Both the position numbers and the translations under genes were made by a program. A stretch of DNA of 64,000 nt. Origin: Eledone cirrhosa (lineage: Eukaryota). Under the pieces are notes generated by a model that was not told the DNA's origin, searched no databases, and worked only from the letters and a program-made list of their open reading frames with translations. The stretch spans positions 310,372,001 to 310,436,000 of the forward strand of contig OZ024743.1 in assembly GCA_964016885.1 (NCBI GenBank), given 5' to 3'. This document shows positions 1,059 to 64,000 of the stretch, piece by piece; position 1 is the first letter of the stretch, and each line of letters starts with the position of its first letter.

Positions 1059-1250
1059 GGCGGTGGATTGGCAGTATCGGTAGTGTGTCGGACGCCATGC
1101 TTTCCAGCATAGTTACGTCCCTTAACGATCTGAGTTCAAATCCCGCCGAGGTTGACTTTGCCTTTCATCCTTACGGGGTCGATAAAATAAAGTATCAGTA
1201 ATGCACTGGGTAATTGCTGGCCTTGTGCCAAAAGTGGAAACAATTATTAT
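1059..1250 (+). mobile_element. Young ~190 bp tRNA-derived SINE (Meta-like central domain) with 15-bp TSD
   Basis: Head GGCGGTGGATTGGCAGTATCGGTAG, B-box GAGTTCAAATCCC, central GCCTTTCATCCTTACGGGGTCGATAAAATAAAGTA, tail GAAACAATTATT. TSD attattatacgacga at 1044-1058 and 1243-1257. Confidence 0.9.
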
Positions 1251-18330: not shown

Positions 18331-18383
<53 letters not shown>

Positions 18384-18413: not shown

Positions 18414-18537
<124 letters not shown>

Positions 18538-18538
18538 G

Positions 18539-18569
<31 letters not shown>

Positions 18570-18586
18570 TATATATTATGTATATA

Positions 18587-18640
<54 letters not shown>

Positions 18641-18734
18641 CATAATAATATTATATATGTATATATATACATATATATATATGTATATATATATACATAT
18701 ATATATACATATATATATATACATATATATATAC

Positions 18735-18832
<98 letters not shown>

Positions 18833-18891
18833 GTATATATATATACATATATATATATGTATATATATATACATATATATATATGTATATA

Positions 18892-18947
<56 letters not shown>

Positions 18948-18982
18948 CATATATATATATGTATATATATATACATATATAC

Positions 18983-19145
<163 letters not shown>

Positions 19146-19206
19146 CATATATATATATATAAATATATATATATATACATATATATATATACATATATAT
19201 ATATAC

Positions 19207-19359
<153 letters not shown>

Positions 19360-19370
19360 CATATATATAG

Positions 19371-19478
<108 letters not shown>

Positions 19479-19569
19479 CATACATATATATACATATACA
19501 TATATATATATATATATATACATATAGATATATATATATACATATAGATATATATATATATACATATAC

Positions 19570-19932
<363 letters not shown>

Positions 19933-19952
19933 TAATATATATATATGTATAT

Positions 19953-21354
<1,402 letters not shown>

Positions 21355-21355
21355 G

Positions 21356-21639
<284 letters not shown>

Positions 21640-21644
21640 TACAT

Positions 21645-21693
<49 letters not shown>

Positions 21694-21736
21694 ATATATA
21701 CATATATATATATAATATATACATATATATATATAC

Positions 21737-21855
<119 letters not shown>

Positions 21856-21888
21856 TATATACATATATATATATACATATATATATAC

Positions 21889-22050
<162 letters not shown>

Positions 22051-22056
22051 ATATAC

Positions 22057-22139
<83 letters not shown>

Positions 22140-22160
22140 TATCTATACGTATATATATAC

Positions 22161-22337
<177 letters not shown>

Positions 22338-22360
22338 CATATATATGTATATATATATAC

Positions 22361-22415
<55 letters not shown>

Positions 22416-22435
22416 ATATACATATATATATATAT

Positions 22436-22658
<223 letters not shown>

Positions 22659-22737
22659 CATATATATATATGTATATATATACATATATATATACATATA
22701 TATATATGTATATATATATACATATATATACATATAC

Positions 22738-22874
<137 letters not shown>

Positions 22875-22899
22875 TATATATACATATATATATATATAC

Positions 22900-23529
<630 letters not shown>

Positions 23530-23559
23530 GTATATGTATATATATGTATATATATATAC

Positions 23560-23656
<97 letters not shown>

Positions 23657-23685
23657 ATATATATATATATATGTATATATATATG

Positions 23686-23791
<106 letters not shown>

Positions 23792-23881
23792 CATATATAT
23801 ATATGTATATATATATACATATATATATGTATATATATATACATATATATATACATATATATATATACATATATATATATA

Positions 23882-23977
<96 letters not shown>

Positions 23978-24107
23978 GTATATATATATACATATATATA
24001 TATGTATATATATATACATATATATATATGTATATATATATACATATATATATACATATATATATATACATATATATATACATATATATATATATACATA
24101 TATTATA

Positions 24108-24177
<70 letters not shown>

Positions 24178-24184
24178 TATATAC

Positions 24185-24235
<51 letters not shown>

Positions 24236-24238
24236 TAC

Positions 24239-24345
<107 letters not shown>

Positions 24346-24373
24346 CATATATATACATATATATCTATACATA

Positions 24374-24408
<35 letters not shown>

Positions 24409-24415
24409 CTATACA

Positions 24416-24535
<120 letters not shown>

Positions 24536-24592
24536 CATATATATTTTATATATAATACATATATATATGTATATATATATACATATATATAC

Positions 24593-24653
<61 letters not shown>

Positions 24654-24654
24654 C

Positions 24655-24705
<51 letters not shown>

Positions 24706-24706
24706 C

Positions 24707-24773
<67 letters not shown>

Positions 24774-24774
24774 C

Positions 24775-24825
<51 letters not shown>

Positions 24826-24826
24826 C

Positions 24827-24881
<55 letters not shown>

Positions 24882-24882
24882 C

Positions 24883-24933
<51 letters not shown>

Positions 24934-24934
24934 C

Positions 24935-25640
<706 letters not shown>

Positions 25641-28771: not shown

Positions 28772-28960
28772 TTGGCAGTATCCTTAGAGGGTCGGACGCC
28801 ATGGTTTGCAGCCTGGAGTTACAGGCCTTTACGATCTGAGTTCAAATTCCGCAAAGGGTAACTTTGCCTTTCATCCTTACGGGGTCGATAAAATAAAGTA
28901 CCAGTAATGCACTGGGATGATTGCTGGCCTTGTGCCAAAAGTAGAAACTATTATTATTAT
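28772..28960 (+). mobile_element. Young SINE with (ATT)n tail
   Basis: Consensus match. Tail gtagaaactattattattatt. Confidence 0.88.
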
Positions 28961-31653: not shown

Positions 31654-32808
<1,155 letters not shown>

Positions 32809-33510: not shown

Positions 33511-33609
<99 letters not shown>

Positions 33610-33611
33610 AG

Positions 33612-34533
33612 TGGTTACACAACAGTTAGTTCACCATACCGAGAACAATTTGTTCACCTTAGCGGATCCTGAGCTCGTAATGGACATGGTTATACAGAAC
33701 AACAAGGACAACCGTACGAAGGCGCATCCGCAGAAACGATCACTTCACACAGGCAAAACTAAAATGTCTGCGAGAGGTGTAAGGGAGATAACTGCGAAAG
33801 TCCGAAAAGTTTCTAGTTGATTAGAAAATTAGGATGTTGTTGTAATTTAATCCGGAGCTTTGTAGTTACGTAAGAGGTGTTTCGAGAGGTGTGGATAACG
33901 TGTGTAGAATTCCAATCTCGTGTTTAGGCAATCGCTATTCTATAATCTCTTTAGAATATTTATTCGTTCATCGATACATACTCCACACGACGGATTTCCC
34001 GTTGCGTATGGTTTGGGCTAAGTGATGGTTTTCCATTGAATGAAGTAGTCTATACTTGAGTCCCTGGGGGACCATACGTGGCTCGCGAGTTTCGTGGATG
34101 AACGTCTTTCCGGGTACCTAAAGGTACCTGGTGGTTCAGGAAGCGTTCCTTAAATCGGCCCTCCGCCTTACCCACATAGGATTTGACCTCTTGTGGTTGA
34201 TTTGGTCGGTTGGAAGTGACCACCGCTTCATAAACTACAGCGAGTGTGTTGCATTGCTGTTGAAGGGGACAAGCTTCGCAGTTATCTCCCTTACACCTCT
34301 AGCACGCATTTTAGTATTGTCTGTGTGAAGTGATCGTTTCTGGGCATGCGCGTTCGTACGGTTGTCCTTCCTGTTCCGTATAACCATATCCATTACGAGG
34401 TGAGGATCCGCTAATGTGAAATAATTTTTCTCGGTATGGTGAACTAACTGTTGTGTAACCATTTCTACCTAACTCGTCCCATGGACTGAGTGCTCTACCA
34501 CTACGGTACGGATATTACCTTCCGGTGTTCTAC

Positions 34534-42997: not shown

Positions 42998-43036
42998 GGT
43001 GCGTGTCTGCCAAACGAGAGTAGCCCTGTACCTCAG

Positions 43037-43428
43037 ACACCATGGTTTGCAGCATAGAGATATAGCCCTTTTACGTTCTGAGTTCAAATCCCGCCAGGTT
43101 AACTTTGCCTTTCATCCTCACTGGGTCGATAAAATAAAGCACCAGTAATGCACTGGGGTAATTTCTGGCCTTGTGCCAATAGTAGAAACAATTATTATGT
43201 TACATATAGGGCGGTGTTTTGGCAGTATCGGTAGAGAGTCAGACGCCATGCTTTAAAGCATATAGTTACGAACCTTTACGTTCTGAGTTCAAATCCCGCC
43301 GAGGTTAGCTTTGACTTCATACTTATGGGGGGTCGATGAAATAAAACACCAGTAACATAGTGGAGTCGATTATATTACTTTTCCCTCAAATTGTTCGCCT
43401 TGTGCTTAAATCATAAATCCTTATTATG
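43037..43428 (+). mobile_element. Two tandem SINEs (43037-43198, 43209-43428)
   Basis: Consensus matches. Both end in ttattatgtta. Confidence 0.85.
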
Positions 43429-44915: not shown

Positions 44916-45280
44916 CACTGAAGATGTCTCCAAAATAACGGATCTTAGATATGTTGTATCTAAAAGGAAGATCACGGGAATGCGGTATAACTGCGTGGCA
45001 AAAGACATCTATAATTCAGATCTTTCATGTTCAGTGAAAGAAAATAACTTATCTCGAAGAAGATACTGTCATCTCGAACAATATACGGTCATTTTTATGC
45101 CCTCGAGAGAAAAATTACGGACAGGTTTGACTGATATGTAGGATAGCATCTCTTCCATGGATTGAGGAACCATATGTGTTCAATTCAAACCGAATGAGGA
45201 GGTGAACGCGAGCCAAACTGTTGCATAAGTATTCAATTAATAAACAATATTTTATCATTATAAGAATTATTATTATTATT

Positions 45281-48200
45281 ACAGTTGCATTTATCTTGCT
45301 TTATGTACATACGAGTTATCACCAAGTCACAACCAATGACCTGAAGAGACAACAAGGTCCGCCATGTTCAAGAAAGAACATACCTACACACACATGCATC
45401 TTTAGGTGTTTAGACTTGTGATGTACTTATATTGACAGAATCTTCCTTAATATATGGGCAGTTCCCATTAGTACTATCTTTTGTATTTCTCCTATACGCG
45501 GGTTTCCTGGGATTTGCGATAAGTAATCATTAGCCCCCTAGGTATCATTCCTAGATCGCTTACAACCACTGGTATTGTCTTAGTTCTCAATTTCTATCTC
45601 CAGGTCCTTATACTTGCTCAATTTTTCAAATGTTTTTATAGATACATTCTTGTCTATTGGAACGGACATATCAATTAGCAGGCATACCCTCTTTTGAAAG
45701 TCCTTCAATATTATATCATCTCTATTTGCATCTATTTTTCGGTCTGTTTGGATGCTAAACTTCCACAAGATTGAGATGTGATCTTTTACAAGTACGGGAG
45801 GTGGTTGATGCTCCCACCAATTCTTTTGATGGGGCAGGTCAAAATGCTTACACATTATCCAATGTATGTATTGTGCAGCTCTGTCATGCATGTTTAGGTA
45901 TTCGGTTGGAGCTATAGGACTGCACATTGAAATTATATGATCAATGGTCTCTGGTCGTTTTTTGCATACACGGCATAATGGGTTGTATCCATTTTTTATT
46001 ATGTTGGCTTGGTAACTTTTTGTTGGCAGACATTGATCTTGTGCTGATATAATTAGTTCTTCAGTCTCCGATTTTAGTCCAGAGCATGCCAACCACTGAT
46101 GGGTTAAAGGTTTGTCAACATCAGGATTGTTAGCTCTTTCTGGGTATTTTCCATACAGAGGCTTTTCTTGCCATTTCTTAGCCAGTTTCTGTAGCAGTTC
46201 TATCTTTGCAGTTACTTTTACCTGCCTTGCTTTTTCTGTGTTTTTCATTTCAGCAGTAAATGGAACTTCTGAAATTTGTAGTCCATTACTGTATCTTTGT
46301 GCATCTTTTGTAATGGAGTATGATCTTTTGATGCTTTCGTGTTTCAAAACGAGTTTGATCATCCAATTATGTGATTCCCTTAGATATGTAGATAATCCAA
46401 TTGTTGTAGTTTTTAACGCAATATCTAACTGGATTAACCCACGACCTCTTTCTTTCCCAGGGAGATCTATTCTATCTGTATCTGCCTTAGGGTGATGCAC
46501 TCTGTGCATGGTTAAGAATTTTCTAATTTTTTTATCGAGCCTACGGATCTCTGTGTTTGACCAGTTGATGACATTGTAACTGTAGGTTACTACTGGTATG
46601 GCAAGCGTGTTTATGGTATCGATCCTATTCCTTACATTCAATTCCGTTCTTAAGATTGCTCTTACTCTGCGGTAACATTCCTTCCTTATCCTTTCCCTCA
46701 TTGTCGAGTTCTTGATTCCGTCTCCTTCACAAACACCTAGAGATTTGTAAGTTTCCTCTTGATCAAGTTCTCTTATCACATTCCCCCGATCAAGATTAAT
46801 GTCTGAACTTTTCAGCAGCTTTCCTCTGGTTAACGTTACTTTGGCGCATTTATCTAGTCCAAACTCCATTTTAATGTCATCACTGAACTGCTCCACAGTG
46901 GATAATAGCCCCTGCAATTGTTCATCATTTTTGGCAAATAGTTTCAGGTCATCCATGTAGAACATGTGATTAATGGTTTTGTCATAGACTTTATATCCAT
47001 GTTTTGTTTCATTGAGCATTTTACTTAATGGTATAAGTGCGATGCAGAATAAAAGCGGTGATAAAGAGACACCCTGAAAAATTCCACAATTAATATTAAC
47101 TTCCCCAGCTTCCAGTGATTTCTTTTCACAACTCAAAAGGAGTCTCGTTTTCCATGTCTTCATACTGAATGACAGGAACCTCCTGACAACGAGAGATATT
47201 TTGAAAATCTCTAAACATTTTTCAATCCAACTGAGTGGCAAACTATCGAATGGATTGTTATAAATCTATCCAAGCAATTGATAGATTTTTGTGTCTATTA
47301 TGACAATCTTCCAGTATCATTTTGTTAACCAAAAGCTGATCTTTACAGCCATATGAGCCAGGTTTACACTCTTTCTGCTCATTGGGAAATAGATCATTTG
47401 TTATCATATGTATATTCAGTTAGGATTGATGTTAAAATTTTATACATTGTGGTCAAGCAAGTTATCGGTCTGTAATTTTTGGGATTGTTTGTCTGATCAT
47501 TCTTCGGAAGTAGGAATGTAATGCCGTTAAATAGCCATGATGGTATCTTTTCTGGCTCCTTAACTATTTCATTGTAAAGTTGGGCTAACAGCTCACGAGA
47601 CTCTGTATTATTTTGTCTTTTCCTGGGGATTTCCATTTGCTGGTTTTTCTAAGAGCCAACCGCAACTTTTCAACTGTTATATTTTCCCATGTTTGTTCCT
47701 CTAACTGAGCTGTATCATTCATTTGTCTGTCTATCCATGGGGTATGTATATTATGAACTTTTACTTCGGCCCAGATCTTTTCCCAGAATTCTTGCACTTC
47801 TTCCTTGGTTGGTATTGATTTAGCAGTTATTGTTGACTTATCAATTTTTCTGTAGAAGTTTCTTTGGTTGTTTTTGAACATATTATTGTCCTTATAGAAT
47901 CTAGTTCGTTTTTCAAAGAATATTATACGAGCAGCTTTGGCCGACACTTTTTGCTTGATTATTTCTATCAGCATGTCTATGTCACTTGTTGATTTTATAC
48001 TGTATTTTTTTTTCAATTTTCTAAGTTTAGTTTGTTTAACATGTTCACCTACTTTGAAGTTTGTTAACATGTCTATGTCAGATCGGAGAAGGTTTATCTG
48101 GCGATTGATGTTCTTTGCCAAGTAGGTTTCTTGTGGGAATTCCTTTGTTTTTTTCATTTTCACTCCACATAAGTGAGTGGTGACTTTAGCCGATGCATAA

Positions 48201-49190
48201 TAGAGATGATTTAGATCAGTAATGTTTAGTTTGTTTGTGATGATAATGTTTTTGAGAATGATGTTAGTCTTGTGTATTATCTTTTGGTTCTGTTTGGAGT
48301 TCTAGATCCTAGGGAGAGTGCCTGGTTCCCCCATGTCAGATTCTTTCATTTTCATCCATTCGATCATAATTTCATTTTTCAAGTTGACAGGTTCATTCTC
48401 ATTTATTTCTTTATCATTTACGATCTCGTTGTTTTCATTTTGAATTTCATCTTGAGCATGTACTCCCTCCACGTTTGTGATCCTTTCTTTAATTTGTTCT
48501 ACTGTCAGTGATTCCGCCACAACCCTGGGATTCGAAGTGTTACAATTTACCTTGGTTTCACTGACACATGTTTCATTTTCCCTTTGCTGACTTTGTGCTA
48601 ATTGCTTGATCTGATCAATTTCTATATCAGTTAGTAACTTTTTTTTAACAATATTTCTTCCTATATTGGCTAGTTTGTTAATGTCAACGTAGCCTCTGTT
48701 TTCGGGATGTTTCTTTTTCCAGTTGATATATGTCTGTTCTGTATTCGATCTATTTGATGGGTAGTACATGGCAATGTAGAAAGCCTCAAGGACTTTTTAT
48801 TGTCTTCCCTTGACCATTTTTCTCTCTTTTTCTTTGGATTTCTTGGTGGTGAGCATGGAGGGCCAACAGTAGGAGTATTCCGGTTATGGGAGGTCTCCAG
48901 CTCCGAATTGATGGGAAGGTTTGAACCATTAACTGATTTTTCGACGCCAGTCTGGTTCCTCTCTGAGGGACGCGGCCCTTTTTGAGCCGGGTGACGGCCG
49001 ATCCGGTATGAGATTTTATCATTTGACATTGACTTTATCTTGTTGCGTGTTATCCTTAACCGCCAAGGGGTAATCATTTCGTGTTACCACTCCTAGGACG
49101 AGTGTCAACCAAGACTAGATTGGTCGTCCTCCCCTAGAGACATGGCTATTTCCTGCCGGCCGCCATACCGGTATTTCTTGGTCACGGATT
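45281..49190 (-). mobile_element. R4/Dong-type RLE non-LTR retrotransposon, family A, apparently full length but disrupted
   Basis: 3' end abuts (ATT)n. Single frameshifted ORF with RT, CCHC and RLE domains, and a GC-rich 5'UTR at ~49030-49190. Confidence 0.92.
45427..49029 (-). pseudogene. Family A polyprotein (N-terminal region, RT, CCHC finger, RLE), with frameshifts and stops
   Basis: WKSPGKDKI, NYRPITCL, GIFQGVSLSPLLF, HMFYMDDLKL, CRVC..ETIDHIISMC, D..LIDMSVP..KLSKY, and terminal LMGTAHILRKILSI*. Confidence 0.9.
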
Positions 49191-49199
49191 CTTTTGTTT

Positions 49200-50145
49200 T
49201 TTTTTGTTTTTTAAATTCTTATTATCATGAGTGGTTCCTTAATGTGAGCATTGCGTGGCTTAAGATTGAAATTATTATTAATAATATAATATACTTTTTG
49301 TTGAAGTTGCCTGTTGTTGTTGTTGGCTATGTCGGTGGTGGTGCTGGGGCTTTTTCTATTGTTGGTGGAAGCAAGGGGGAAGCAAGCAGTGCCATAGTCG
49401 TTAACGTTTGACCGGGTCACTAAGTCAGTCTATTTATATCTTTTGCTAGCCTCTCCCTTGTCTAGTGATACCGCCACCTTCCCCTTTCTTAAGTTAATAG
49501 AAGGTAGTGGGGTAGTAATGGTGGCGGTGGTGATGGGATAGTGGTAGCAATGATGGAGTGGTGGCGGCGGTGACTGTAGGTATGGCGTTGTTGCTACTTA
49601 CTTCTTTTGAATAGACTGTAGCTAGTATGCGTGACATTGATCTGTATATATATGCGGTTTGTCGCCTATGTTTAATATATATTTTGACATATTTGCTTAA
49701 TATTTGAATTAAACATTTTGAGAAAACATGAGATACAATAATAGTAATTATTATTATTATGCTGGGATTGGTGGTGGTGGTGGTTAAATTACCGTTATCT
49801 GGCTGTTGTATTTAATGTACACGGAGGGGTGGTGGGATAGGTAGCGTATCTAGGTTGTGGTGGTGGTGAAATTGCTGTTATTTGGCAGTTGTATATAGTG
49901 TAGACAGAGGGGGTTTTCTTCCAATTATAACCATTTTCTTTTTTTAATATGATATTTATAATACAAAATTGAATATTTAAGCGATATAACAGGATATTAT
50001 AGGTCATCATTTCCTGAGGATTATACCTGGTGTTTTATGTCACATTTGTACTAAGAATTGTTATATCACAATTGTTTTAAATATGTTAAAAATCAAAAAC
50101 TTACGGGAGCGATTCCATAACACTATATCCACCACGTGCGTCTAC
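49200..50145 (-). mobile_element. Possible 5' portion of another Tx1/L1-like element
   Basis: The minus strand begins GTAGACGCACGTGG...GCTCCCGTAAG, loosely like the Tx1 5' ends GCGACCTACGTAG...GCTCCGCAAAG, next to (AAG)/(AAT)n, with Thr/Pro/Asn-rich low-complexity frames. Confidence 0.35.
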
Positions 50146-50157
50146 TTCTTCTTCTTC

Positions 50158-50207
<50 letters not shown>

Positions 50208-50209
<2 letters not shown>

Positions 50210-51470
50210 AGTTGCATTTATCTTGCTTTATGTTCATACGAGTTATCACCAAGTCACAACCAGTGACCTCAAGAGACAACAAGGTCCGCCATGTTCAAGA
50301 AAGAACATAATATTCACACATGCATCTTTAGTGTTTAGACTTGTGATGTACTTATATTGACAGAATCTTCCTTAGTATATGGGCAGTTCCCATTAGTACT
50401 ATCTTTTCTATTTCTCCTATACGCGGGTTTCCTGGGATTTGCGATAAGTAATCATTAGACCCCTTAGGAATCATTCCCAGAGCGCCTACAACCACTGGTA
50501 TTGTTTTAGTTCTCAATTTCCACATTTTTCCAATTTCTATCTCCAGGTCCTTATACTTGCTCAATTTTTCAAATGTTTTTATAGATACATTCTTGTCTAT
50601 TGGAACAGACATATCAATTAGCAAGCATACCCTCTTTTGAAAGTCCTTCAATATTATATCAGGTCTATTTGCATCTATTTTTCGGTCTGTTTGGATGCTA
50701 AACTTCCACAAGATTGAGATGTAATCTTTTTCAAGTATGGGAGGTGGTTGATGCTCCCACCAATTCTTTTGATGGGGCAGGTCAAAATGCTTACACATTA
50801 TCCAATGTATGTATTGTGCAGCTCTGTCATGTCTGTTTAGGTATTCGGTTGGAGCTATAGGACTGCACATTGAAATTATATGATCAATGGTCTCTGGTTG
50901 TTTTTTGCATACACGGCATAATGGGCTGCACCCATTTTTTATTATGTTGGCTTGGTAACTTTTTGTTGGCAGACACTGATCTTGTGCCGATATAATCAGT
51001 CCTTCAGTCTCCGATTTTAGTCCAGAGGATGCCAACCACTGATGGGTTAAAGGTTTGTCAACATCAGGATTGTTAGCTCGCTCTGGGTATTTTCCATACA
51101 GAGGCTTTTCTTGCCATTTCTTAGCCAGTTTCTGTAGCAGTTCTTTCTTTGCAGTTACTTTTACCTGCTTTGCTTTTTCTGTGTTTTCCATTTCAGCAGT
51201 AAATGGGACTTCTGAAATTTGTAGTCCATTACTGTATCTTTGTGCATCTTTTGTAATGGAATATGATCTTTTGATGCTTTCGTGTTTCAAAACGAGTTTG
51301 ATCATCCAATCATGTGATTCCCTTAGATATGTAGATAATCCAATTGTTGCAGTTTTCAACGCAATGTCTAACTGGATTAACCCACGTCCTCCTTCTTTCC
51401 TAGGGAGATATATTCTATCTATATCTGCCTTAGGGTGATGCATTCTGTGCATGGTTAAGAATTTTCGAAT

Positions 51471-51472
<2 letters not shown>
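50208..51472 (-). mobile_element. Family A copy 2, 5'-truncated, flanked by (ATT)n
   Basis: Open ORF 50352-51452 with CCHC and RPDIILKD...LIDMSVP. Same 3' end acagttgcatttatc. Confidence 0.95.
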
Positions 51473-51507
<35 letters not shown>

Positions 51508-51508
<1 letters not shown>

Positions 51509-51821
51509 TGCATTTATCTTGCTTTATGTTTATACGAGTTATCACCAAGTCACAACCAGTGACCTCAAGAGACATCAAGGTCCGCCATGTTCAAGAAAGA
51601 ACATACATACTCACGAATGCATCTTTAGTGTTTAGACTTGTGATGTACTTATATTGACAGAATCTTCCTTAGTATATGGGCAGTTCCCATTAGTACTATC
51701 TTTTGTATTTCTCCTATACGCGGGTTTCCTGGGATTTGCGATAAGTAATCATTAGACCCCTTAGGTATCATTCCCAGAGCGCCTACAACCACTGGTATTG
51801 TGTTAGTTCTCAACTTCCACA

Positions 51822-51822
<1 letters not shown>
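51508..51822 (-). mobile_element. Family A copy 3, ~315 bp 3' stub, flanked by (ATT)n
   Basis: MWKLRTNTIPVVVGALG...ILSI* plus 3'UTR. Confidence 0.95.
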
Positions 51823-51891
<69 letters not shown>

Positions 51892-51893
<2 letters not shown>

Positions 51894-52835
51894 AGTTGCA
51901 TTTATCTTGCTTTATGTTTATACGAGTTATCACCAAGTCACAACCAGTGACCTCAAGAGACAACAAGGTCCGCCATGTTCAAGAAAGAACACACATATTC
52001 ACACATGCATCCTTAGTGTTTAGACTTGTGATGTACTTATATTGACAGGATCTTCCTTAGTATATGGGCAGTTCCCATTAGTACTATCTTTTGTATTTCT
52101 CCTATACGCGGGTTTCCTGGGATTTGCGATAAGTAGTCGTTAGACCCCTTAGGTATCATTCCCAGAGCGCCTACAACCACTGGTATTGTTTTAGTTCTCA
52201 ATTTCCACATTTTTCCAATTTCTATCTCCAGGTCCTTATACTTGCTCAATTTTTCAAATGTTTTTATAGATACATTCTTGTCTATTGGAACAGACATATC
52301 AATTAGCAGGCATACCCTCCTTTGAAAGTCCTTCAATATTATATCAGGTCTATTTGCATCTATTTTTCGGTCTGTTTGGATGCTAAAGTTCCACAAGATT
52401 GAGATGTGATCTTTTTCAAGTATGGGAGGTGGTTGATGCTCCCACCAATTCTTTTGATGGGGCAGGTCAAAATGCTTACACATTATCCAATGTATGTATT
52501 GTGCAGCTCTGTCATGCCTGTTTAGGTATTCGGTTGGAGCTATAGGACTGCACATTGAAATTATATGGTCAATGGTCTCTGGTTGTTTTTTGCATACACG
52601 GCATAATGGGCTGCACCCATTTTTTATTATGTTGGCTTGGTAATTTTTTGTTGGCAGACACTGATCTTGTGCGGATATAATCAGTCCTTCAGTCTCCGAT
52701 TTCAGTCCAGAGGATGCCAACCACTGATGGGTTAAAGTTTTGTCAACATCAGGATTGTTAGCTCGCTCTGGGTATTTTCCATACAGAGGCTTTTCTTGCC
52801 ATTTCTTAGCCAGTTTCTGTAGCAGTTCTTTCTTT
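51892..52835 (-). mobile_element. Family A copy 4, 5'-truncated, flanked by (ATT)n
   Basis: ORF 52037-52720 (CCHC + RLE). Same 3' end. Confidence 0.95.
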
Positions 52836-52864
52836 ATTATTATTATTATTATTATTATTCTTTC

Positions 52865-52915
<51 letters not shown>

Positions 52916-53124
52916 GGCGACCTACGTAGGAAATCGTATTATCATGAGCTCCGCAAAGGTTTGTTATTTCCGTTTGTTTAAAAATTGCCATTTATGGAAA
53001 ATGTTATTGTAAACTGTTTATAAGCACACATACATTGTTTTCCGAAAAGGACACCCAAAAAGATTGGGGCCTTGTGCCCAAAATTTTAACTTTTATTATT
53101 ATCCAAAAATTTATTTGAAAAAAA

Positions 53125-55097
53125 ATGGCTAATTCCCCTCTGCACGAAGCAGCTGAAAGCCTTCCTCACAAAATAACACCTCACACCGACACCACCATTG
53201 TAAATGTTACTACGTTTGCCAACACAAAAAAAAATATAAGCAGTAGCAATATTTTAAATTTGTCTCAGGCAGACATTCATTTCCCGCCATTACCAATGAC
53301 TGCAGGTGTTAAAGCCTCCACCACCACCACCACCGCGACAACAGAAACAAAAGAAGAAAAAGTTAAATTAACTCGTGATGTCGAAATGAAATCAAGCAAA
53401 ATGGACTCTTCCCCACCAAAGACGACTGACGCCACCACCACCACAACTGAAAATAAAATTAATATTAACGATAGCAACAACAACAACAATGACATTATAA
53501 AACCGACCCTCAGTTTCGCCATCGTAGCAAAACAATTCGAAGCGTTCACGGTAACTCAAGAAGATTTAGAAAATGCCAAACAAATGGTAAAGAAAGATGG
53601 GTACAGGGTCAGCCTCACCCCCCCCCCCCCCCTCGCCACACATAATAAAATGGAGCATCGGCGCCTGTGCACCGTGTCGTATAGAACAATAAATGTAAAA
53701 TCGCGCCGAGTGGAACGGGCATCCGAGTCCCAAATCCAAAAAGCTTTGGGACATGTGTGGGCAAGAAAAACCCACATCAGACGTGGGCAAAAGTATGGAA
53801 CCGTGGATGTGTTCTTTGAAACACCAGAGGAGGCTAGAGAACACTCCATGGCCCCATTAAAAAGTGACGACTTCACACTCGTCCCAAGCTATTGTGGCCA
53901 GGGACTCGTAAAGCTCAGGGTGACCCATGTTCCACCGGCCATCGAAATTCCCTGGCTAATAGCGGCTGTCATCGCCGGCATCGAGGCCAACACGAAAATA
54001 ATAACAATAGCAAAAGAAAAGCAGGAAAACTGGTCCGGATCTGGGATGGAGCTCCTGATCCAAGCGGACCAAAAAAGCATTGAGGAGATCCCAGAGGTAA
54101 TAGACCTCACTGACGGCAGCCACCTCACGGTAATTGTCGAGGGCAGAAGACCTAGGTGTGTCGTTTGTGGTGAAGGAACCCACCTAAGGGCTTTCTGCCC
54201 TCAGGCTAAAAGGTTGAGGCCACCTCTCCTACCCACCCCAGTGACACAACCATCAACACCACCAGTAGCAGAGATGCCAGCAACAACTGTAGCAGCAACA
54301 ACAGAAGCAACTATAACAGCAACAACCCCAGCAACAGTAGCAAAACCAACACCACTACCACCACCAGCAAAACCAACACCACCACCACCCAACGCTTCAG
54401 AACTAGCACCAGCGCCTACACCATCCACCACACCACAACCAAAACTAACGGCTGTGGAGGATTTTCCACTCCCCGGCCTATCACAACTGGAGACAGATTG
54501 TGACGACGAGGAGTGGGAAACGATATCCGGAAAAAAAAAAGAAACCAAAAAAGAAAAAATTCGCTTCCTTCCCCCTCCAAAAACAAAATACAGAGGGAAA
54601 CAAATAAACTAAGAAACAAAAAAGTTAGGACAGATATGCCACCATCCACACCAGCATCACCAACCCCATCAACCCAAACACCAACACCATCACCATCATT
54701 AACTCCAACACCACCATCACCTACACCACAAAAGTCACCAAAATGCGAAACAGAAACAAACCCACAACAAACGCAAACAAAACAAAACAACCAAAACGAT
54801 ACACACTACACAGCATTAAATTTGAACAACAAGCAATTATTGCACTACATCCAACACAACACCAGCATCACAGAAAAAGACTACACAACAACCCCAAAAT
54901 TCACACCACCTCCACACATACAAATCACTCGCATCACACAGAAAACGTACATGACACTAAAACAAAAATTCCCCAAAGACATCGGAGACTTCCGACAAGC
55001 ACTCTCCAGGAGGATTTATAAGGACATCCTTCCTGAGGAGGCCACAAGCAGTGAAAAGGATGGAAAAACCGTCCTTCCCCTACGAGAAGTAAGGTAA
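53125..55097 (+). CDS. Tx1-type ORF1 (nucleic-acid-binding protein, CCHC knuckle); frameshift in the A-run ~54531-54560
   Basis: CVVCGEGTHLRAFC (CX2CX4HX4C) and a Pro/Thr-rich tail. ORFs 53125-54612 and 54513-55097 overlap across poly-A. Confidence 0.8.
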
Positions 55098-55131
55098 GTG
55101 GTCTTTCCCATCTTTTCCACTCCTTTTCAAC

Positions 55132-58100
55132 ATGACCTCACTCAGAATAGGCAGCATAAATGCGCGTGGCTTGGGGTCGTCATGGAAGCAGGGCCACCTG
55201 CTCAACGACCTCAGGTCACTAAACATAGATGTAGTGGCCATCAGCGAGACCAGAATCTCCGAAGCACAGGCTTTCGCACCGATCTTCGGCGGCTACGATG
55301 TGTACGCATCTCCCAGCCGTCCGGGATCGGGGGGAGGAGTTGCTGTGCTTTTTCGGAGAGGTTTGGATCTTGCCATACGGGCCATCTTCCTGGACCCAGA
55401 AGGTAAGTTGGTGGTGCTGGACGTGACCAGCGGAGACGGGCAAGCTTTCAGGTTAGTGGCCGTCTATGCCCCGACAGGAGCAGGGCGGCCTGATTTCTTC
55501 CGGCGTCTGGAGACCTTTCTTGGAACGTCCCGCTCTTTAGTGTTAGTGGGCGACTGGAACGGGATCTTAGATGCACGCTGGGATTGTGTGGGATTAGTGG
55601 ATAGGGAAGGAGGGTGCAAGAGTCTCACCAACCTGCTCAGACGTTTTGAACTGTCTGACAGGTACCGAATGGATTTCCCGAATGTACCAATGTGGACTTG
55701 GACAAATCGCATAGGGTCATCCAGATCATATCTAGATAGAGTATTTTGTAGGGAAATAGATAGGTCTAGCATAGGCTGTCCACAATTCAAGATAGTCAGC
55801 TACACGGACCACAAATTCGTGATAAGTGTGCTTGACTTAGATAGGCTTCATAGACGAAGACCCGGCTACTGGAAGCTAAACGCGTCCTTATCAGCGCGCA
55901 AGGCCTACAGAGACCGGATTAGCGAACTAGTTAAGCGGGCGTTGACGGGGGCCATCGTCAACAACAAGTGGTGGTTTGCTCTGAAAAGAGCAATTAGAAT
56001 AGAGTCCATTAGGTTTAGTAAGACTTTAGCAATAGAGAAAAATAGAGCAGAGGGAGAATTAGTTAGAAAATTAGATGAGGCGCTTAGCAAAGGCATCGCG
56101 ACCGACGTACTTGCGGCGAAATTGGCCCTTGAACAATTCTTCAATGCAAAGCACGAAGGCTGCGTTGTCAGAGCTAGGGTGCGTGCTCTCAGACACGAGG
56201 GGACGAAAGCCGTTCAATGGGCCCGAGTGGCGGAGGCGCGTCGTGGCAACAAAGCCACGATCCTGTCTTTGGTGGACCACGACGGGCGCATGCTACTCGA
56301 TCCCGGGCAAATGTGTGAAGCTTTCCAGCGACACTTCGCTCAACTGTTCGGGGGCAGTGGCGGGCCGGATCGAGGGATGGACTTTAGTGTCTACCTCGAC
56401 GGACTGCCGCGGCTTTCGGCCACTGGGGCGGAGTGTTGCGAAAAGCCAATAACAACCGCTGAAGTACGGGATGCAATGACTAGTTGCACAAGGGGTAAAT
56501 CGCCTGGTTTGGATGGTCTGCCCTATGAACTTTACGTACAAATGCCAAACTTGTTCGGAGGCCTCTTGGCGGACGTCTACTGCAACTGGCAACAGAACGG
56601 GAGAATTCCCAGCTCTGTGAGCCGAGGAGCGGTGGCGCTGCTGAGAAAGGATCCGAACAAGGGGGATAACATAGATAATGTTAGGCCCATAACTCTGCTA
56701 AACACAGAGTTCAAGATTTTGGCCAAAGTGCTAGCAAAGAGGTTGGCGCTTGTCGTTGATGGTCTGGTGGGAGAGGCACAGACATGCGCCATTCCCGACA
56801 GATCCCTCCACGACAACCTCCACCTCATGCGATACATCGTAGAAAGGGGAGCTAGGGAACCTGGCACGGGTGGGTCTTTGATCAATTTAGATCAGTCGAA
56901 AGCCTTCGATAGGGTCGACCATCGTTACCTAACGGCAGTCCTGAGGGCGGCTGGCTTTGGGCCCGTCTTCAGAGGCTGGATCGCTGCCATGCACAGCGAC
57001 ATCTGCTCTGTAGTGAGAGTGAACGGTCACCTTTCGGAACCGTTCAACATCATGCGCTCGGTCCGCCAAGGATGTCCCCTCTCGTCCCTATTGTACGTAT
57101 TGACTCTCGAGCCATTACTGCACAAACTGGAGACGTTGAGGGGGGTCCCGCGCGAACTAGGATGCGGAAGATCCGTGTCAGCATATGCCGACGATGTCAC
57201 CGTAGTGGTGTCGAACGCCAAACACATCGAGGCGATCGGCACTACACTAAGAGAATACGAAGCGGTGACAGGAGCAATGATCAACCAGGAAAAGTCAGTG
57301 GGCCTGCAGCTCGGCACCTGGAGAGGCAGGTCCATGCCGTCCAACAGCGTCGTCGGGCGCTGGACGGACGGACCGGTTAAATTGCTAGGGGTCTGGTTCG
57401 GTCCAGACCTCCAGACGGACAAAGACTGGGACGAGGTGACGAGCAGGGTGGCTTCTCTCACCCAGAAATGGGCCGAGAGGAAGCTATCCCTGAAAGGTCG
57501 AGCGGAGGTGGCGAATGCGTACATCGCATCCGTCATCTACTACCGCCTGACCGTCGTACCTTGTCCTAAGCCCCGCCTGACTGCGCTGGAGCGTTTGCTC
57601 TTTCGCTTCTTGTGGAAGGGACGCGCTCCGATGGTCAGGCGGTCCATCTGCTGTCAACACCCGCTACGTGGAGGGCTGGGCATGCCGTGGCTGATGATGC
57701 GCAGACACGCGCTCAGGCTACGACATCTCCACCTCTTCCTCGACGGTGATCAGGTGTGGTCGCCGTTTGCAAGACACGTTTTTCCCCAGCTCGTCTCCTT
57801 GACGGAGCTGCAGTCCTGGGTCAAGCGAAGACCGAGAGGGAGCGCTTGGAAACTGGAATGTCTTCAGCCGCTCACAGCCCTCGACCAATCGGGCAATGTG
57901 ATCGGTGGAAACTCCACCTTGGCTTTCTATAGGGGATTAGTGGAGGGGAAGAGCGACGACGTACTTGGAGAAACTCTAGGCGTCGACGAAAATCAACTAG
58001 CCAATCTCTTCGGAAGGACTTTCGGGCCGGGGCATATGGACAACTTCCAGAAATCCCTGGCCTGGCAGTGCTACCGAGGAGCTTTGCCAGTTCGGGATAA

Positions 58101-58550
58101 ACTCTACAGGCATGGAGGTGCCGTCAGCCGGGATATCGGAGATGCGCGCAGGGCGACGAAACCGTACTGCACGCACTCGTCCAGTGTCCGAGCATTGCTG
58201 ACTTGTGGGTTTATGTCGAACACCTGCTGTCACGTGTAGGACCTATCCAGCTATCAGCTGAGTCCATCGTGAGGATTGCCCCGCCCCCTTCCTTTAGCCT
58301 GGAAGGGCAGGCAGTTTTTATCTGTCTGGTGGCCATGGCGAAAGAGATAGTATGGTGGACACGTTTGAAAGGGCTGAAGACGAGCACTTACCTCTTCGGT
58401 GATACCCTGATTAACTTTTTCAAATTTCATTTGAAAAGGAAAATCAGGGTAGAGAGGGAAGTGCTCTCTTCCCAGCATTTTGTTGAAAGATGGGTGAGAG
58501 AAGCAAGTATGGCCCGAATGAATGGGCCTTCTCTGAGTATGTGTCTGTAA
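55132..58550 (+). CDS. Tx1-type ORF2: APE endonuclease + reverse transcriptase + C-terminal zinc finger; one frameshift ~58135
   Basis: SINARG, ISET, VYAP, GDWN, YLDR, TDH, YWKLN; KSPGLDG, RPITLLN, DQSKAFDRVDH, RQGCPLS, SAYADD; the shifted frame gives RC.QGDETVLHALVQC. Confidence 0.92.
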
Positions 58551-58792
58551 ATTAAAGGTGGAAAACTGGGAGAGGGCACTTGCCCTGGTGGTCAGGGCCA
58601 CTGTGGTCTTTTAATGGGCTTTCTCCACAAATGTCCCTCGGAAGTCTCCCCCCTATTGGGGAATTTTTCTTTGTTATTTTAATTCAACCTCTGTTTTTTT
58701 ACACGCAGAAATGCCCATTTGTACCGTCCTGTATTGCCCTGTACTGTCCTTAATGTCTACTTTATGTGAACCCTTGTGGTTAATAAAGAAAA

Positions 58793-58835
<43 letters not shown>

Positions 58836-58838
58836 GTT

Positions 58839-61761
58839 CTTTGAGTCTCAGTCATTGATGTTAGTTAACTGGAAAGTTTGTTGAAATGAATATCAAGCCA
58901 CTACCTGCAACCTCGGATATTCTGGACGTATCGGAGGGTTCTTGCTGTTCCCAGCAAGCATGCCGTTTGAAGCGTTCCAAAAAGCGTACCGGAGCCAATT
59001 TTCTTTAACCATCCCTGGAAACATTTTGAGATAGTACCTAGTGCGCCTATGACAATCGGGACCACTTTGACTTCATGGCAGTTCCAAATCCTTTTTACCT
59101 CCCACGTTAAGTCCTGTTACCGGTTAATTTTCTCCCTCTCCTTCTCTTGCACTCTCGTGTCGAATGGGCAGGCCACATTCACGATCTTTTTTCCTTGTCC
59201 AAAACCACCAGGTCAGGTCTATTGTATTCCAGTTTCTTGTCCGTCTGTATCCTAAAATCCCACAGCACCTTCACCTGATCGTTTTCTATCACCAACTCTG
59301 GCTTATGCTCATACCATTTCTCAGAATGTGGTAAATTGTTTACTTTGCATAGGTGCCAGTGGATCACCCTGCCCATCACATCATGTCTCCAGCCCTTATA
59401 GTGAGCCCGGGCAAGGTGCTTACACTCGGATACAATGTGAGCCACAGTCTCCTCTCTATCTCCACAGATCCTGCACAGTGTGCTAGCCTCCTCCTTGTAA
59501 ATATGGTTTTTACAACCACTTCGTTTTGAGGGCCTGCTCTTGCGCAGCCATTAGCATTCCTTCTGTAGCCTTTTTAAGGTCTCCTCTTTTCAACCAGTTC
59601 CATGTCTGTGGATCTCTGAATTCAGTTTTCTCAAAGAAGGTACTATGAAGGGATTTTTCATGAAGCCTTATCTTTCTCCTCATTGTTATTTCCTCCTTGG
59701 ACATCCCCTGGTCTATTGTCCTCTCCATCAGTACAATTCTGAGCATTGGCTCCTTACTATCAGTCACGTATTTGTGTAGGTTGTTTTCCTCCATCTGAAC
59801 ACAGTCCTCTGTACTGATAAGACCTCTTCCACCTTCAGATCTCCTTAAGTAGAGTCTATCGACATCACTCCTCTTGTGGAACATGTTGTAGATAGTCAAT
59901 AGCTTCCTAGTCTTCCTATCCATTTCTTTTTGTTCAGCAACATTCCATCTCAGAATTCCCGCACTGTACCTAATAATAGACACAGCTCGGGAATTTACTG
60001 CACTTATGGCATTCGTACTGTTCAGATGTGACTTTAATACGCTCCTTACTCTCCGAATTTATTCAGATCTTATCAATTCCTTCATTTTTTTTTTGTTCTT
60101 GATGTCATCAGCCTCCAGAACACCCAAATACTTGCATCCTTCTTCAGTGTCAATTTCCTTTATCATCTCACATGTTGGTACCTGGATTCCGTTGCTTCTG
60201 CTCAATTTACTCCTCTTCATCACAAGGACTCCACACTTACTAATACCAAATTGCATACATATATCATTGCTGAAAATACGGACAGTGTCAACAAGCACAT
60301 CCAACTCCTCTCACTCTTCCCGAAGAGCTTAAGATCGTCCATGAAGAGAAGGTGATTAATGGTAAGCTCTCCCTTTCCCAACTTGTATCCTGCTCTCACT
60401 TTTCGCAGTATAATGGTCAGGGGCATCAGGGCAAGGACAAACAACAGAGGGGACAGACTATCTCCCTGGAAGATACCTCTCTTGATCGTCACGCCTCCCA
60501 AGGATTCTCCAGCTGATGTTAACTCTGTTTTCCAGGACTTCATACTTTGCCCAACAACTGTCTGATGTTATCTGCCACCTTGAAGATCTCTAGGCTTTTG
60601 GTGATCCAAGAATGAGGCACATGTCAAATGCCTTGTTGTAGTCTATCCATGGCAAGACCAGTGTGTCTCCTCTTGCAATTCCTCATTACTATCTTATCAA
60701 TAAGTAACTGGTCCTTTGTACCACGGGACTTCTTTCGGCATCCTTTCTGTTCGTCCTTAACAAGTTGTTTGTGTGGAGGTGATGGTAGATTTCCTCAGAC
60801 ATAATGCTTGTCAACAGTTTCCACATTACGGACAGACATGTGATAGGTCTATAGTTGGTAACATCATTACCCTTGATTCGGTCTTTCATTACCAGAACTG
60901 TGGAACCTTTTGACAACCACTCTGGTACCTCACCTGACATCAAGCAGGCATTAAACATGGTTGTCAGTTTCGGGTGGAGGGATGTTATATGTTTAATCCA
61001 ATAGCCCTGCACACCATCTGGGCCTGGTGATTTCCAGTTGGTTAGTTTTTTGGCCTGCCCCTTAAGAGTTTCAACTGTGATACTCAAATCAGTCTGTTGG
61101 TGTGCCTGTTCAATAATCTCCTTTTGTACTGTCTCAATCCACACTGCCTGGTCATTATGTTTAACATCCTGCTCCCATATTCCTCTCCAGAGTGTCTTAG
61201 TTTGCTCCGCCTCAGGGATCAAGCCGTTGCCTCTTTCTTTCCCTTCAAGCTGTCCAAACAGCATCTTCTGGTTGTTGTCAAACATGCGGTTCTGTCTATA
61301 CTTACTGACTCTGCTCTCGTATCGCCTAATTTTTGCACTCTTTGCTACAATGCGTTGCTTCAGATCAGATCCTCTATGATAATATTTAGATTTTTCCTCC
61401 TAGTTTTGTACTTTATTTCCAGTCTATTTTTAGTGTCTATGCTATTTAGTGTCCCATTCAGTAGGGACTCAAGCTTTCCAATGTCATTTCTCATTTCCCT
61501 GATTTGACCATTCAGTCGTTTCTTCCCCCAACGTTCTGATCTTTGTTGTTTGTTGTTTCCTCTCGCTTTTATGCCAAGTAATTTCCTCACCACATTTGCT
61601 GTTGCTTTGAGGATATTGTTGCACTGGTGAAGGCTCCTCGCCTCAAGGTATGGGATGACTTTGTTTACCTTAGCTGTTGTTTCTTTTAACTTTTTCCTGT
61701 CTACAAATCTTAGGTACATAGGTTTCCCACTATCATTGTTCAATTCATCTACCACTAAGTT
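58839..61761 (-). mobile_element. R4/Dong-type RLE retrotransposon, family B copy 1 (5'-truncated, frameshifted), flanked by (ATT)n
   Basis: WKSPGPDGVQGYW, NYRPITCL, GIFQGDSLSPLLF, HLLFMDDLKLF, CRIC..ETVAHIVSEC, RPDLVV, LLGTARTLR. Confidence 0.92.
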
Positions 61762-61790
61762 TATTATTATTATTATTATAATTGTTATTA

Positions 61791-63019
61791 CTCTTTGAGT
61801 CTCAGTCATTGATGTTAGTTAACTGGAAAGTTTGTTGAAATGAATATCAAGCCACTACCTGCAGCCTCAGATATTCAGGACGTATCGGAGGGTTCTTGCT
61901 GTTCCCAGCAAGCATGCCTTTTGAAGCGTTCCAAAAAGCGTGGAGGGGCCAATTTTCTTTAACCATCCCTGGAAACTTTTTGAGATAGTCCCTAGTGCGC
62001 CTATGACAATCGGGATCACTTTGACTTCATGGCAGTTCCAAATCCTTTTTACCTCCCACTTTAAGTCCTGGTTCGGTTAATTTTCTCCCTCTCCTTCTCT
62101 TGCACTCTCGTGTCGAATGGGCAGGCCACATCCACAATCAGGCACGATCTTTTTTCTTTGTCCAAAACCACCAGGTCAGGTCTATTGTGTTCCAGTTTCT
62201 TGTCCGTCTGTATCCTAAAATCCCACAGCACCTTCACCTGATCGTTTTCTATCACCGCATCTGGCTTATGCTCATACCACTTCTCAGAATGTGGTAAATT
62301 GTTTTCTTTGCATAGGTGCCAGTGGATCACCCTGCCCATCACATCATGTCTCCAGCCCTTATAGTGAGCCTGGGCTAGGTGTTTACACTCGGATACAATG
62401 TGAGCCACAGTCTCCTCTCTCTCTCCACAGATCCTGCACAGTGTAGCCTTTTTAAGGTCTCCTCTTTTCAACCAGTTCCATGTCTGTGGATCTCTAAATT
62501 CAGTTTTCTCAAAGAAGGTACTATGAAGGGATTTTTTCTTGAAGGCTGCTCTTTCTCCTTGATGTTTTTTCCTCCTTGGACATCCCCTGGCCTATTGTCC
62601 CCTCCTTCAGTACAGTTCTAAGCATTGGCTCCTTACTATCAGTCACGTATTTGTGTAGGTTGTTTTTCTCCATCTGAACACAGTCCTCTATGCTGATAAG
62701 ACGTCTTCCACCTTCAGATCTCCTTAAGTAGAGTCTATCGACATCACTCCTCTTGTGGAACATATTGTAGATAGTCAATAGCTTCCTAGTCTTCCTATCC
62801 ATTTCTTTTTGTTCAGCAACATTCCATCTCAGAATTCCCGCACTGTACCTAATAATAGACACAGCTCGGGAATTTACTGCACTTATGGCATTCCTACTGT
62901 TCAGGTGTGACTTTAATACGCTCCTTACTCTCCGAAGGTATTAAGTTCTTATCAATTCCTTCATTTTTTTGTTCTTGATGTCATCAGCCTCCAGAACGCC
63001 CAAATACTTGTATCCTTCC

Positions 63020-63020
<1 letters not shown>
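61791..63020 (-). mobile_element. Family B copy 2, 5'-truncated, with internal ~85 bp deletion
   Basis: Colinear with 58839-60140. RPDLVV..LIVDVACPFD. Flanked by (ATT)n. Confidence 0.92.
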
Positions 63021-63070
<50 letters not shown>

Positions 63071-64000
63071 GTGCGACCTACGTAGTAAATTGTATCATCG
63101 GGAGCTCCGCAAAGGTTTGTTATTTTCAGTTGTTCAAAATTACCATTCATGGGAAATTTTATTGTTAACTGTATATAAGTGCACATACATTGTTATCTGA
63201 AAAGGACACCCAAAAAGATTGGGGCCTTGAGCCCAAAATTCAAACTTTTTATAATTATCAAACAAAAAAAGATTTTCTTTGAAAAATCATGGCCGACTCA
63301 GTAGCTGAGAACCTTCCTCACAAAATAACACCTCACACCGACACCACCATTGTAAATATTACTACGTTTGCCAACACTAAAAATATAAGCAGTAGCAATA
63401 TTATAAATTTGTCTCAGGCAGACATTCATTTCCCGCCATTACCAATGAATGCAGGTGTTAAAGCCGCCACCACCACCACCACCACCACCGCGACAACAGA
63501 AACAAAAGAAAAAAATAAATTAACTCGTGATATCGAAATGAATTCAACCAAAATGAACTCTTCCACACCGAACACCACTGACGCCACCACCACCACAACT
63601 GAAACTAAAATTGATAATAACAAAAATAACGATAACAACAACAGCAACAATGACATTAAGAAAACCACCCTGAGTTTTGCCAGAGTAGCAAAACAGTGTG
63701 AAGCATTTCAGGTAAGTCAGGAGGAATTAGAAAAAGCCAAAAAATGGTAAAGAAAGATGGGTACAGGGTCAGCCTCAAACCCCACCTAATAAAATGGAGC
63801 ATCGGCGCCTATGCACCGTGTCTTATCGAACAATTAATATAAAATCGCGCCGAGTGGAACGGGCATCCGAGTCCCAAATCCAAAAAGCTTTGGGACATGT
63901 GTGGGCCAAAAAGAAAACCCACATCAGACGTGGGCAGAAGTATGGAACCGTAGACGTGTTCTTTGAAACACCACAGGAGGCTAGAGAACACTCTATGGCC
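63071..64000 (+). mobile_element. Tx1-type LINE copy 2, 5' end (runs off the window)
   Basis: GTGCGACCTACGTAG follows (ATT)n. ORF 63289-63750 is homologous to ORF1 (LPHKITPHTDTTIVN.TTFANTK). Confidence 0.92.

Follow-up and report, generated by a model that had tools for sequence, protein, structure and literature searches.

Mixed trains of APE- and RLE-type LINEs in opposite orientation on (ATT)n microsatellites of Eledone cirrhosa

Dong, a long interspersed element (LINE) of the R4 clade, targets (TAA)n and is described from B. mori, A. gambiae and B. glabrata (PMC3812793). The Tx1 families given in PMC4494074 include Kibi in (TC)n, Koshi in (TTC)n and crocodilian elements in (TTCC)n or (TTTC)n. 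TRAS and SART enter (TTAGG)n in opposite directions; the endonuclease of TRAS1 nicks a T-A step, and a few repeat units suffice (PMC7265360). Keno, a Tx1 element with an apurinic endonuclease-like domain (APE), and Utopia, with a restriction-like endonuclease (RLE), are both found in U2 small nuclear RNA genes, where identical 3' flanks indicate the same direction (PMC4640811). In Drosophila 28S ribosomal DNA, R1 forms tandem arrays in which new copies enter the target duplication of an earlier copy, and its truncated ends show 5' microhomologies and upstream deletions (PMC2718515). Here we describe a train of APE and RLE LINEs on an (ATT)n microsatellite of Eledone cirrhosa, at C4:310,372,001-310,436,000 (contig OZ024743.1) of the 3.0-Gb assembly. 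We call this whole stretch of 64,000 nucleotides the window, and coordinates below are window positions unless a contig is named.

The train in the window consists of eight LINEs, with an (ATT)n run at each of eight junctions. Six elements are of the R2 type (RLE; families A and B) and lie on the minus strand, and two are of the L1/Tx1 type (APE; family T) and lie on the plus strand. Throughout the genome, A and B very probably insert in the AAT direction of the same microsatellite into which T, a second Tx1-type family (U) and a short interspersed element (SINE) insert in the ATT direction, the trains likely growing by reinsertion into the repeat left on both sides. Each ingredient is precedented (Dong, Koshi, TRAS/SART, Keno/Utopia and the R1 arrays), and for their combination the literature searched yielded no paper.

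[quoted passage not shown] Like Kibi and Koshi, T is a two-ORF APE element with microsatellite on both sides and a fixed direction, but its target, (ATT)n, is not among the Tx1 targets cited above from PMC4494074, and its host is an invertebrate. Families opposed in one simple repeat recall TRAS and SART. Both of those are APE elements, belong to the R1 clade and are telomeric, whereas the nucleases here are unrelated and the target is dispersed. Keno and Utopia likewise represent APE and RLE lineages that reached one target in parallel, but theirs is a low-copy gene entered in the same direction, unlike the opposite directions and mixed trains found here. The R1 arrays differ in comprising one family in one direction at one locus type. 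SINEU was assigned to Tx1-Mar by the shared target, and its tandem copies are separated by a duplication (PMC4494074); the present SINE differs from it in having a tRNA-like head and a Tx1-like 3' motif and in making up 1.8% of a 400 kb sample. In Octopus vulgaris, Dong-R4 is listed as a recently active LINE group (PMC13282606, Table 1), and Dong-R4, L1-Tx1 and SINEs are described as prominent (PMC13282606). The literature searched, which included cephalopod repeat papers but not Repbase, subscription journals or supplements, described neither an ATT-targeting Tx1 family nor mixed trains of opposed elements.

Layout of the train and classification of its elements

The left edge of the train is (ATT)5 at 45266..45280, the 3' flank of A1; the unique flank up to 45251 is present in a read-derived contig. 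A1 (45281..50144, minus strand) is a full-length RLE LINE of family A with a 5' untranslated region (UTR) of ~1.1 kb, an ORF broken by stops and frameshifts, and an RVT_1 match of 4e-16. Between its 5' end and the 3' end of A2 are (CTT)5 and then (ATT)17 (50145..50208). A2 (50209..51470), which carries the CCHC finger and the PD..D..K nuclease motif, A3 (51508..51821) and A4 (51893..52833) are 5'-truncated family A copies on the minus strand, separated by (TTA)6 G (TAT)6 (51471..51507) and (TAT)23 (51822..51892). An interrupted (TTA)~27 run (52834..52915) joins the 5' end of A4 head-to-head to that of T1 (52916..58793, plus strand), a full-length two-ORF APE LINE of the L1/Tx1 type with matches to Exo_endo_phos (8.9e-14) and RVT_1 (3.1e-28). 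Its ORF1 (53119-55097, plus strand), containing a CCHC knuckle, is split by a frameshift, and its ORF2 (55093-~58547, plus strand), containing APE, RT and CCHC, has a frameshift near 58236. T1 and B1 meet tail-to-tail at (ATT)14 (58794..58835). B1 (58836..61760) and B2 (~61791..63019) are 5'-truncated RLE LINEs of family B on the minus strand, separated by (TTA)6 and degenerate units (61761..61790); B2 has an internal deletion of ~82 bp relative to B1. A further head-to-head junction, (TAT)17 at 63020..63070, separates the 5' end of B2 from that of T2 (63071..64000 and on to ~66,710, plus strand), a Tx1-type copy with 91.7% identity to T1. The (ATT)n runs of the eight junctions start at 45266, 50158, 51471, 51822, 52834, 58794, 61761 and 63020, and three further short runs, (ATT)3-4 at 49271, 49747 and 53093, are inside the 5' UTRs of elements and are not junctions. 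Because A4/T1 and B2/T2 are head-to-head, their runs are the 3' tail of neither neighbour.

The preliminary description of this DNA, made from its letters, had reported a ~19 kb train of eight elements with none nested in the body of another. The eight elements and their strands stand, including the four A and two B copies on the minus strand (45281-63019), and within the window zero LINEs are nested in another LINE. The train is longer, however: beyond the window it continues up to window-equivalent ~72,675, so that nine LINEs, belonging to four families, occupy ~27.4 kb in all. At ~66,710 T2 breaks off without a 3' end and is joined to an element of family U with no ATT run between. The two plus-strand Tx1-type elements were described as ATT-flanked, which holds for both sides of T1 but only for the 5' side of T2. 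Family U extends from ~66,710 to ~72,636, followed by (ATT)13 and the train end at ~72,675. Three families had been counted at the one repeat; the repeat is indeed shared, but by four LINE families plus a SINE.

Motifs were read in the translations, where A and B show no APE; in profile searches their proteins match RVT_1 and not Exo_endo_phos, and their closest solved relatives are R2 proteins (E 1.2e-9). To our knowledge, R4 elements lack N-terminal CCHH fingers. None is visible in the N-terminus of the intact family A ORF of 1216 aa (L274:1994-5641; L numbers denote the genomic loci examined), a region with no zinc-finger Pfam match, and such fingers are present in R2 (PMC7650587). A and B lie in (TAA)n in the sense direction, as do R4/Dong elements. 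In T, ORF1 contains a CCHC knuckle, as is carried by ORF1 of the Tx1 clade, and ORF2 has an N-terminal APE, RT and a C-terminal CCHC; the closest solved relative of ORF2 is human L1 ORF2p (E 2.5e-50), with R2 at 2.8e-20, and a short piece of it matches an Octopus sinensis protein at 66%. Family U is 81% identical to T. Intact T ORF2 (1152 aa) occurs in L291 and L294-L297, and the uninterrupted A and T ORFs indicate recent activity of both classes. The 120 listed of 2935 homologues included no named sequence of R4 or Dong, and 54 homologues no named Tx1 reference; the Atlas hits contained neither. The R4 and Tx1 clade membership is putative, being assigned from domain architecture and target and not from a phylogeny that includes reference elements.

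Despite their low protein identity, A and B have a similar 5' terminus and common 5' UTR segments (L124-L153, L189 and L201). In L003, L015 and L197 and at window-equivalent ~90,300-90,350 (L123), ATT runs are followed by an additional element end that begins GAATGCCATGG and likely belongs to another Tx1-type family in trains.

The repeat as target, the polarity of insertion and the SINE

The genome was searched with the ends of each family, and up to 30 loci were taken for each, mostly best-scoring matches. Junctions were tallied in L001-L283 for fragments of at least 86-88% identity, with duplicate junction sequences removed and seven window-derived loci left out; a truncated 5' end was counted only if the fragment reaches the 3' end or the locus edge. 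The background sample consisted of 40 evenly spaced 10-kb stretches (400 kb). Of 40,000 positions drawn at random, 140 (ATT) and 129 (AAT) had a run of at least three units ending no more than 12 bp away, or ~0.35% per strand.

The 3' ends lie on the expected run in 46/46 cases for A (AAT), 76/83 for B (AAT) and 39/40 for T (ATT). At the other end, ATTATTATT is located directly upstream of 453 of the 487 exact T 5' starts in the genome, and, as read by eye, 29 of 29 U 5' ends are on ATT. Full-length A 5' ends, likewise read by eye, are on AAT in 17/20 cases; this reading was used because a reference offset and (AAG)n spacers raise the automated tally of ends with no run (16/32). Since it is target DNA to which a truncated 5' end is joined, a repeat found there is the target. 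Such ends are on AAT in 34/49 A and 69/94 B copies and on ATT in 10/24 T copies. For A and B combined, 103/143 are on (AAT)n and 0 on an ATT-only run; across the three families the opposite run alone was observed at none, and both runs at one A and one B end. With no same-strand tail upstream, the run is still present for 18/32 A and 43/65 B ends (AAT) and for 25/25 full-length T ends (ATT), and 17/27 B 5' ends with no annotated neighbour are still on AAT. The explanation that the runs are element-added tails only was rejected, as they occur at 5' junctions that are truncated or head-to-head; the repeat is thus a target and not just tail sequence. At truncated 5' junctions a microhomology overlap of at least 2 bases was seen in 8/13 A and 13/39 B cases, against 26% and 20% expected, a weak signal obtained with single-copy references.

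Runs of (AAG)n often come after an (AAT)n run, frequently just before A/B 5' ends. This order was seen for 23/34 (AAG)5+ runs in the loci, with examples in the window (50,145-50,159) and in L042, L112, L133, L155, L174 and L194.

Neighbouring elements were counted within 200 bp, so that one junction may count from both sides. APE-RLE neighbours are opposite in 139 counts and in the same direction in 0, RLE-RLE neighbours are in the same direction in 119 and opposite in 4, and APE-APE neighbours are in the same direction in 29 and opposite in 0.

The SINE, of ~185 nt, has its reference copy outside this train (1059..1243, plus strand) and joins trains elsewhere in Tx1 polarity; further copies in the window are at ~10,250-10,420, ~28,780-28,950 and ~43,030-43,195. 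Its polarity and phase are those of the Tx1 elements, with orientation opposite to A/B in 92 counts versus 11 and with T/U in 19 versus 3, and its 3' motif resembles the U and T 3' ends at modest significance. In its head, tRNA-like A/B box motifs were recognized by eye; a search of Rfam with 44.5-64 kb and with the SINE gave neither a ribozyme nor a tRNA match. Target duplications of 9-20 bp (mode 17) were observed in the 24 informative of 54 full-length copies, 19/23 of them starting ATTAT, and SINE insertions into known element bodies also show duplications. These features make the SINE a candidate Tx1-dependent element, with T or U as its partner. The perfect run upstream of T has at least six units in 67/70 copies, and 83/100 genomic runs have 3-5 units. 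This length is in line with a duplication of ATT units, and a six-unit recognition requirement gives the same floor. Across 36 copies, the (AAT)4 in the A 5' UTR shows four interruptions by the SINE and none by these LINEs. In the 5' UTR of T (53,060-53,101), a short TTA run comes after a motif resembling the SINE/Tx1 3' end, which would fit capture of a short upstream element into the 5' end; in L216/L301 a SINE is inserted at this site.

Trains elsewhere in the genome

Such trains occur throughout the genome, and the one in the window is not exceptional among them. Another of these LINEs lies within 200 bp of the 3' end in 33/46 A, 59/83 B and 31/40 T copies, compared with 1.9% of random points. 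Trains of at least nine LINEs would account for roughly 6-10%, a geometric estimate from a continuation rate of 70-75% in a young-biased sample. A 44 kb train at C2:353.60 Mb and one of at least 30 kb at C1:37.11 Mb exhibit the polarity seen in the window. The 400 kb sample contains 24 runs of at least five units, 12 of them bordering a LINE, 2 bordering a SINE and the remaining 10 bordering neither. At C2:353,611,500-353,641,000 (L285-L288), six full-length A units follow one another with a period of ~4,911 bp, 99.8-99.9% identity and near-identical spacers, which points to a recent tandem duplication inside a train.

Copies of different ages stand within one train. In the window train, the identity to the nearest copy is 93.4% for U, 95.0% for A1, 99.1% for T1 and 99.9% for A4 (to L274 and L262). 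The copies nearest to their relatives are in the middle (A4 and T1) and the most diverged at the edges (A1, T2 and U), as would be expected under repeated internal insertion, the search depth being unequal between families.

Proposed mechanism, alternatives and significance

Several observations weigh against a shared target entered from opposite directions, with growth by reinsertion. Truncated 5' junctions without any run amount to 14/49 for A, 24/94 for B and 14/24 for T, and the loci, being mostly best-scoring matches, are biased to young copies. RLE-RLE neighbours are opposite in 4/123 counts, and Tx1-like ends occur beside AAT in L151 and L279; given these exceptions, the polarity is near-strict, not absolute. 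The tail match between the SINE and the Tx1 elements is short, with 21 (U) and 442 (T) of 13,826 null windows scoring as high; the SINE tail matches neither A nor B (3041 and 9160 such windows). Duplications are unreadable inside a pure repeat, and of the 91 LINE copies seen at both ends 0 have an informative one (T 0/23, U 0/2, A 0/20, B 0/46); the length of the duplication is accordingly taken over from the SINE. The duplication search had no chance control, and an empty allele was not seen among the loci. As for the preliminary description, its concern that most 5' flanks might not be ATT is answered by the T, U and truncated A/B counts above, the orientation relative to ATT is not random, and the convergence of both nuclease classes on one repeat is borne out by fixed-phase repeat flanks at both ends genome-wide. 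Its "strictly opposite polarity" is accurate for all 139 APE-RLE counts but overstated for the exceptions just named. Its "self-extending landing pad" agrees with flanks and orientation, but some long arrays grow by tandem duplication.

Under the established geometry of target-primed reverse transcription, the priming strand would be (ATT)n for A and B and (AAT)n for T, U and the SINE. The 3' phases are fixed: T and U end in ...C followed by ATT, the SINE is followed by ATT, B ends in ...C followed by AAT, and A is ambiguous but compatible. If RNA and primer do not overlap, both first nicks would, by these phases, fall on opposite strands at the one TpA step that each unit contains. Judging from the SINE, the Tx1 machinery would duplicate ~12-20 bp of target, or 4-6 ATT units, and if T/U supply the SINE machinery, a T insertion would duplicate the same number of units. 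Each insertion would thus leave repeat on both sides for later elements to target again, and unequal crossing-over likely lengthens some trains afterwards. The run-less truncated junctions and the T2/U joint may represent upstream deletions of the kind reported at truncated ends of R1 and R2 (PMC2718515). We infer strand-specific nicking, in which the nucleases themselves may choose the strand. In its fullest form, which we regard as possible while stopping short of calling it probable, four or more LINE families, whose nucleases are of two unrelated kinds, and a very abundant Tx1-driven SINE would all cut (ATT)n at the same TpA step, but from opposite strands, and make each other's landing sites, the self-extending mixed trains amounting to several percent of the 3-Gb genome and about half of the longer ATT runs.

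The same targeting and growth would be obtained if polarity came from the RNA 3' end, (UAA)n or (AUU)n, pairing with the primer while the nucleases nick either strand. The 3' phases fixed in each family are consistent with such pairing, and annealing of the SART1Bm 3' UTR to its target is reported (PMC7265360); RNA pairing and nick specificity are inseparable from sequence data alone. However, at SINE sites starting GTTATG, ATTAAA, ATTAAT and ATCATT the element is followed at once by target sequence, without an added ATT tail, and the specificity of SART/TRAS changes on a swap of the endonuclease domain (PMC7265360). We consider this alternative rather unlikely. It is quite improbable that the same-direction chains (A2-A3-A4 and B1-B2) are one-event concatemers made by RT template jumping, with the runs as copied RNA tails. 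The R2-type RT is capable of template jumping, and RLE-RLE neighbours are head-to-tail in 119/123 counts. Template jumping nevertheless cannot produce head-to-head junctions bearing a run, of which there are two in the window, and A and B 5' ends stand beside an opposite T in 25 and 19 counts; moreover, the window copies differ by 2-6.5% and have different nearest relatives. Single junctions may have arisen in this way.

It is very improbable that the trains arose for the most part through tandem duplication or through unequal crossing-over at runs. The six near-identical A units at C2:353.61-353.64 Mb fit such an origin, but the window copies differ in truncation point, family and age. Tandem duplication is refuted as the general mechanism: it explains the C2 sub-array and not the mixed trains, and keeps a secondary role. 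Scarcely credible is a misassembly joined at ATT runs. No contigs or restriction site-associated DNA sequencing (RAD-seq) reads bridging the runs of this locus were found, but false joins would not preserve family-specific phase and polarity at hundreds of loci. In RAD-seq raw reads from other individuals, truncated B ends are followed by TTATTATT (156 reads at 62051; X18), and B-to-B joints through an ATT run are present in 6 (X16) and 3 (X18) reads.

Elsewhere in the window, an 11-kb degenerate (AT)n tract (13,830-25,079) contains islands at ~5.1 kb spacing (14,974-16,053 and 20,101-21,179; 99.4%) and 400-bp palindromic islands near 17,875, 23,022 and 25,079. Inverted-repeat pairs at 32,516-32,803 (78 bp, 97%) and 33,608-34,465 (191 bp, 90%), beside (AT)n(AG)n runs, are possibly similar to miniature inverted-repeat transposable elements.

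Insertion of both nuclease classes into (ATT)n extends the APE/RLE target convergence of Keno and Utopia to a dispersed microsatellite and to opposite polarity. It also adds an apparent Tx1 lineage with (ATT)n as its target. With intact copies of both classes at hand, one oligonucleotide substrate could separate strand choice by the nuclease from that by the RNA tail. In such genomes, (AAT)n markers would often have multicopy flanks. The trains provide a candidate partner for a dominant SINE and offer a mechanism for the clustering of young LINEs in a cephalopod genome, a group in which hotspots of transposable elements are reported (PMC13282606).

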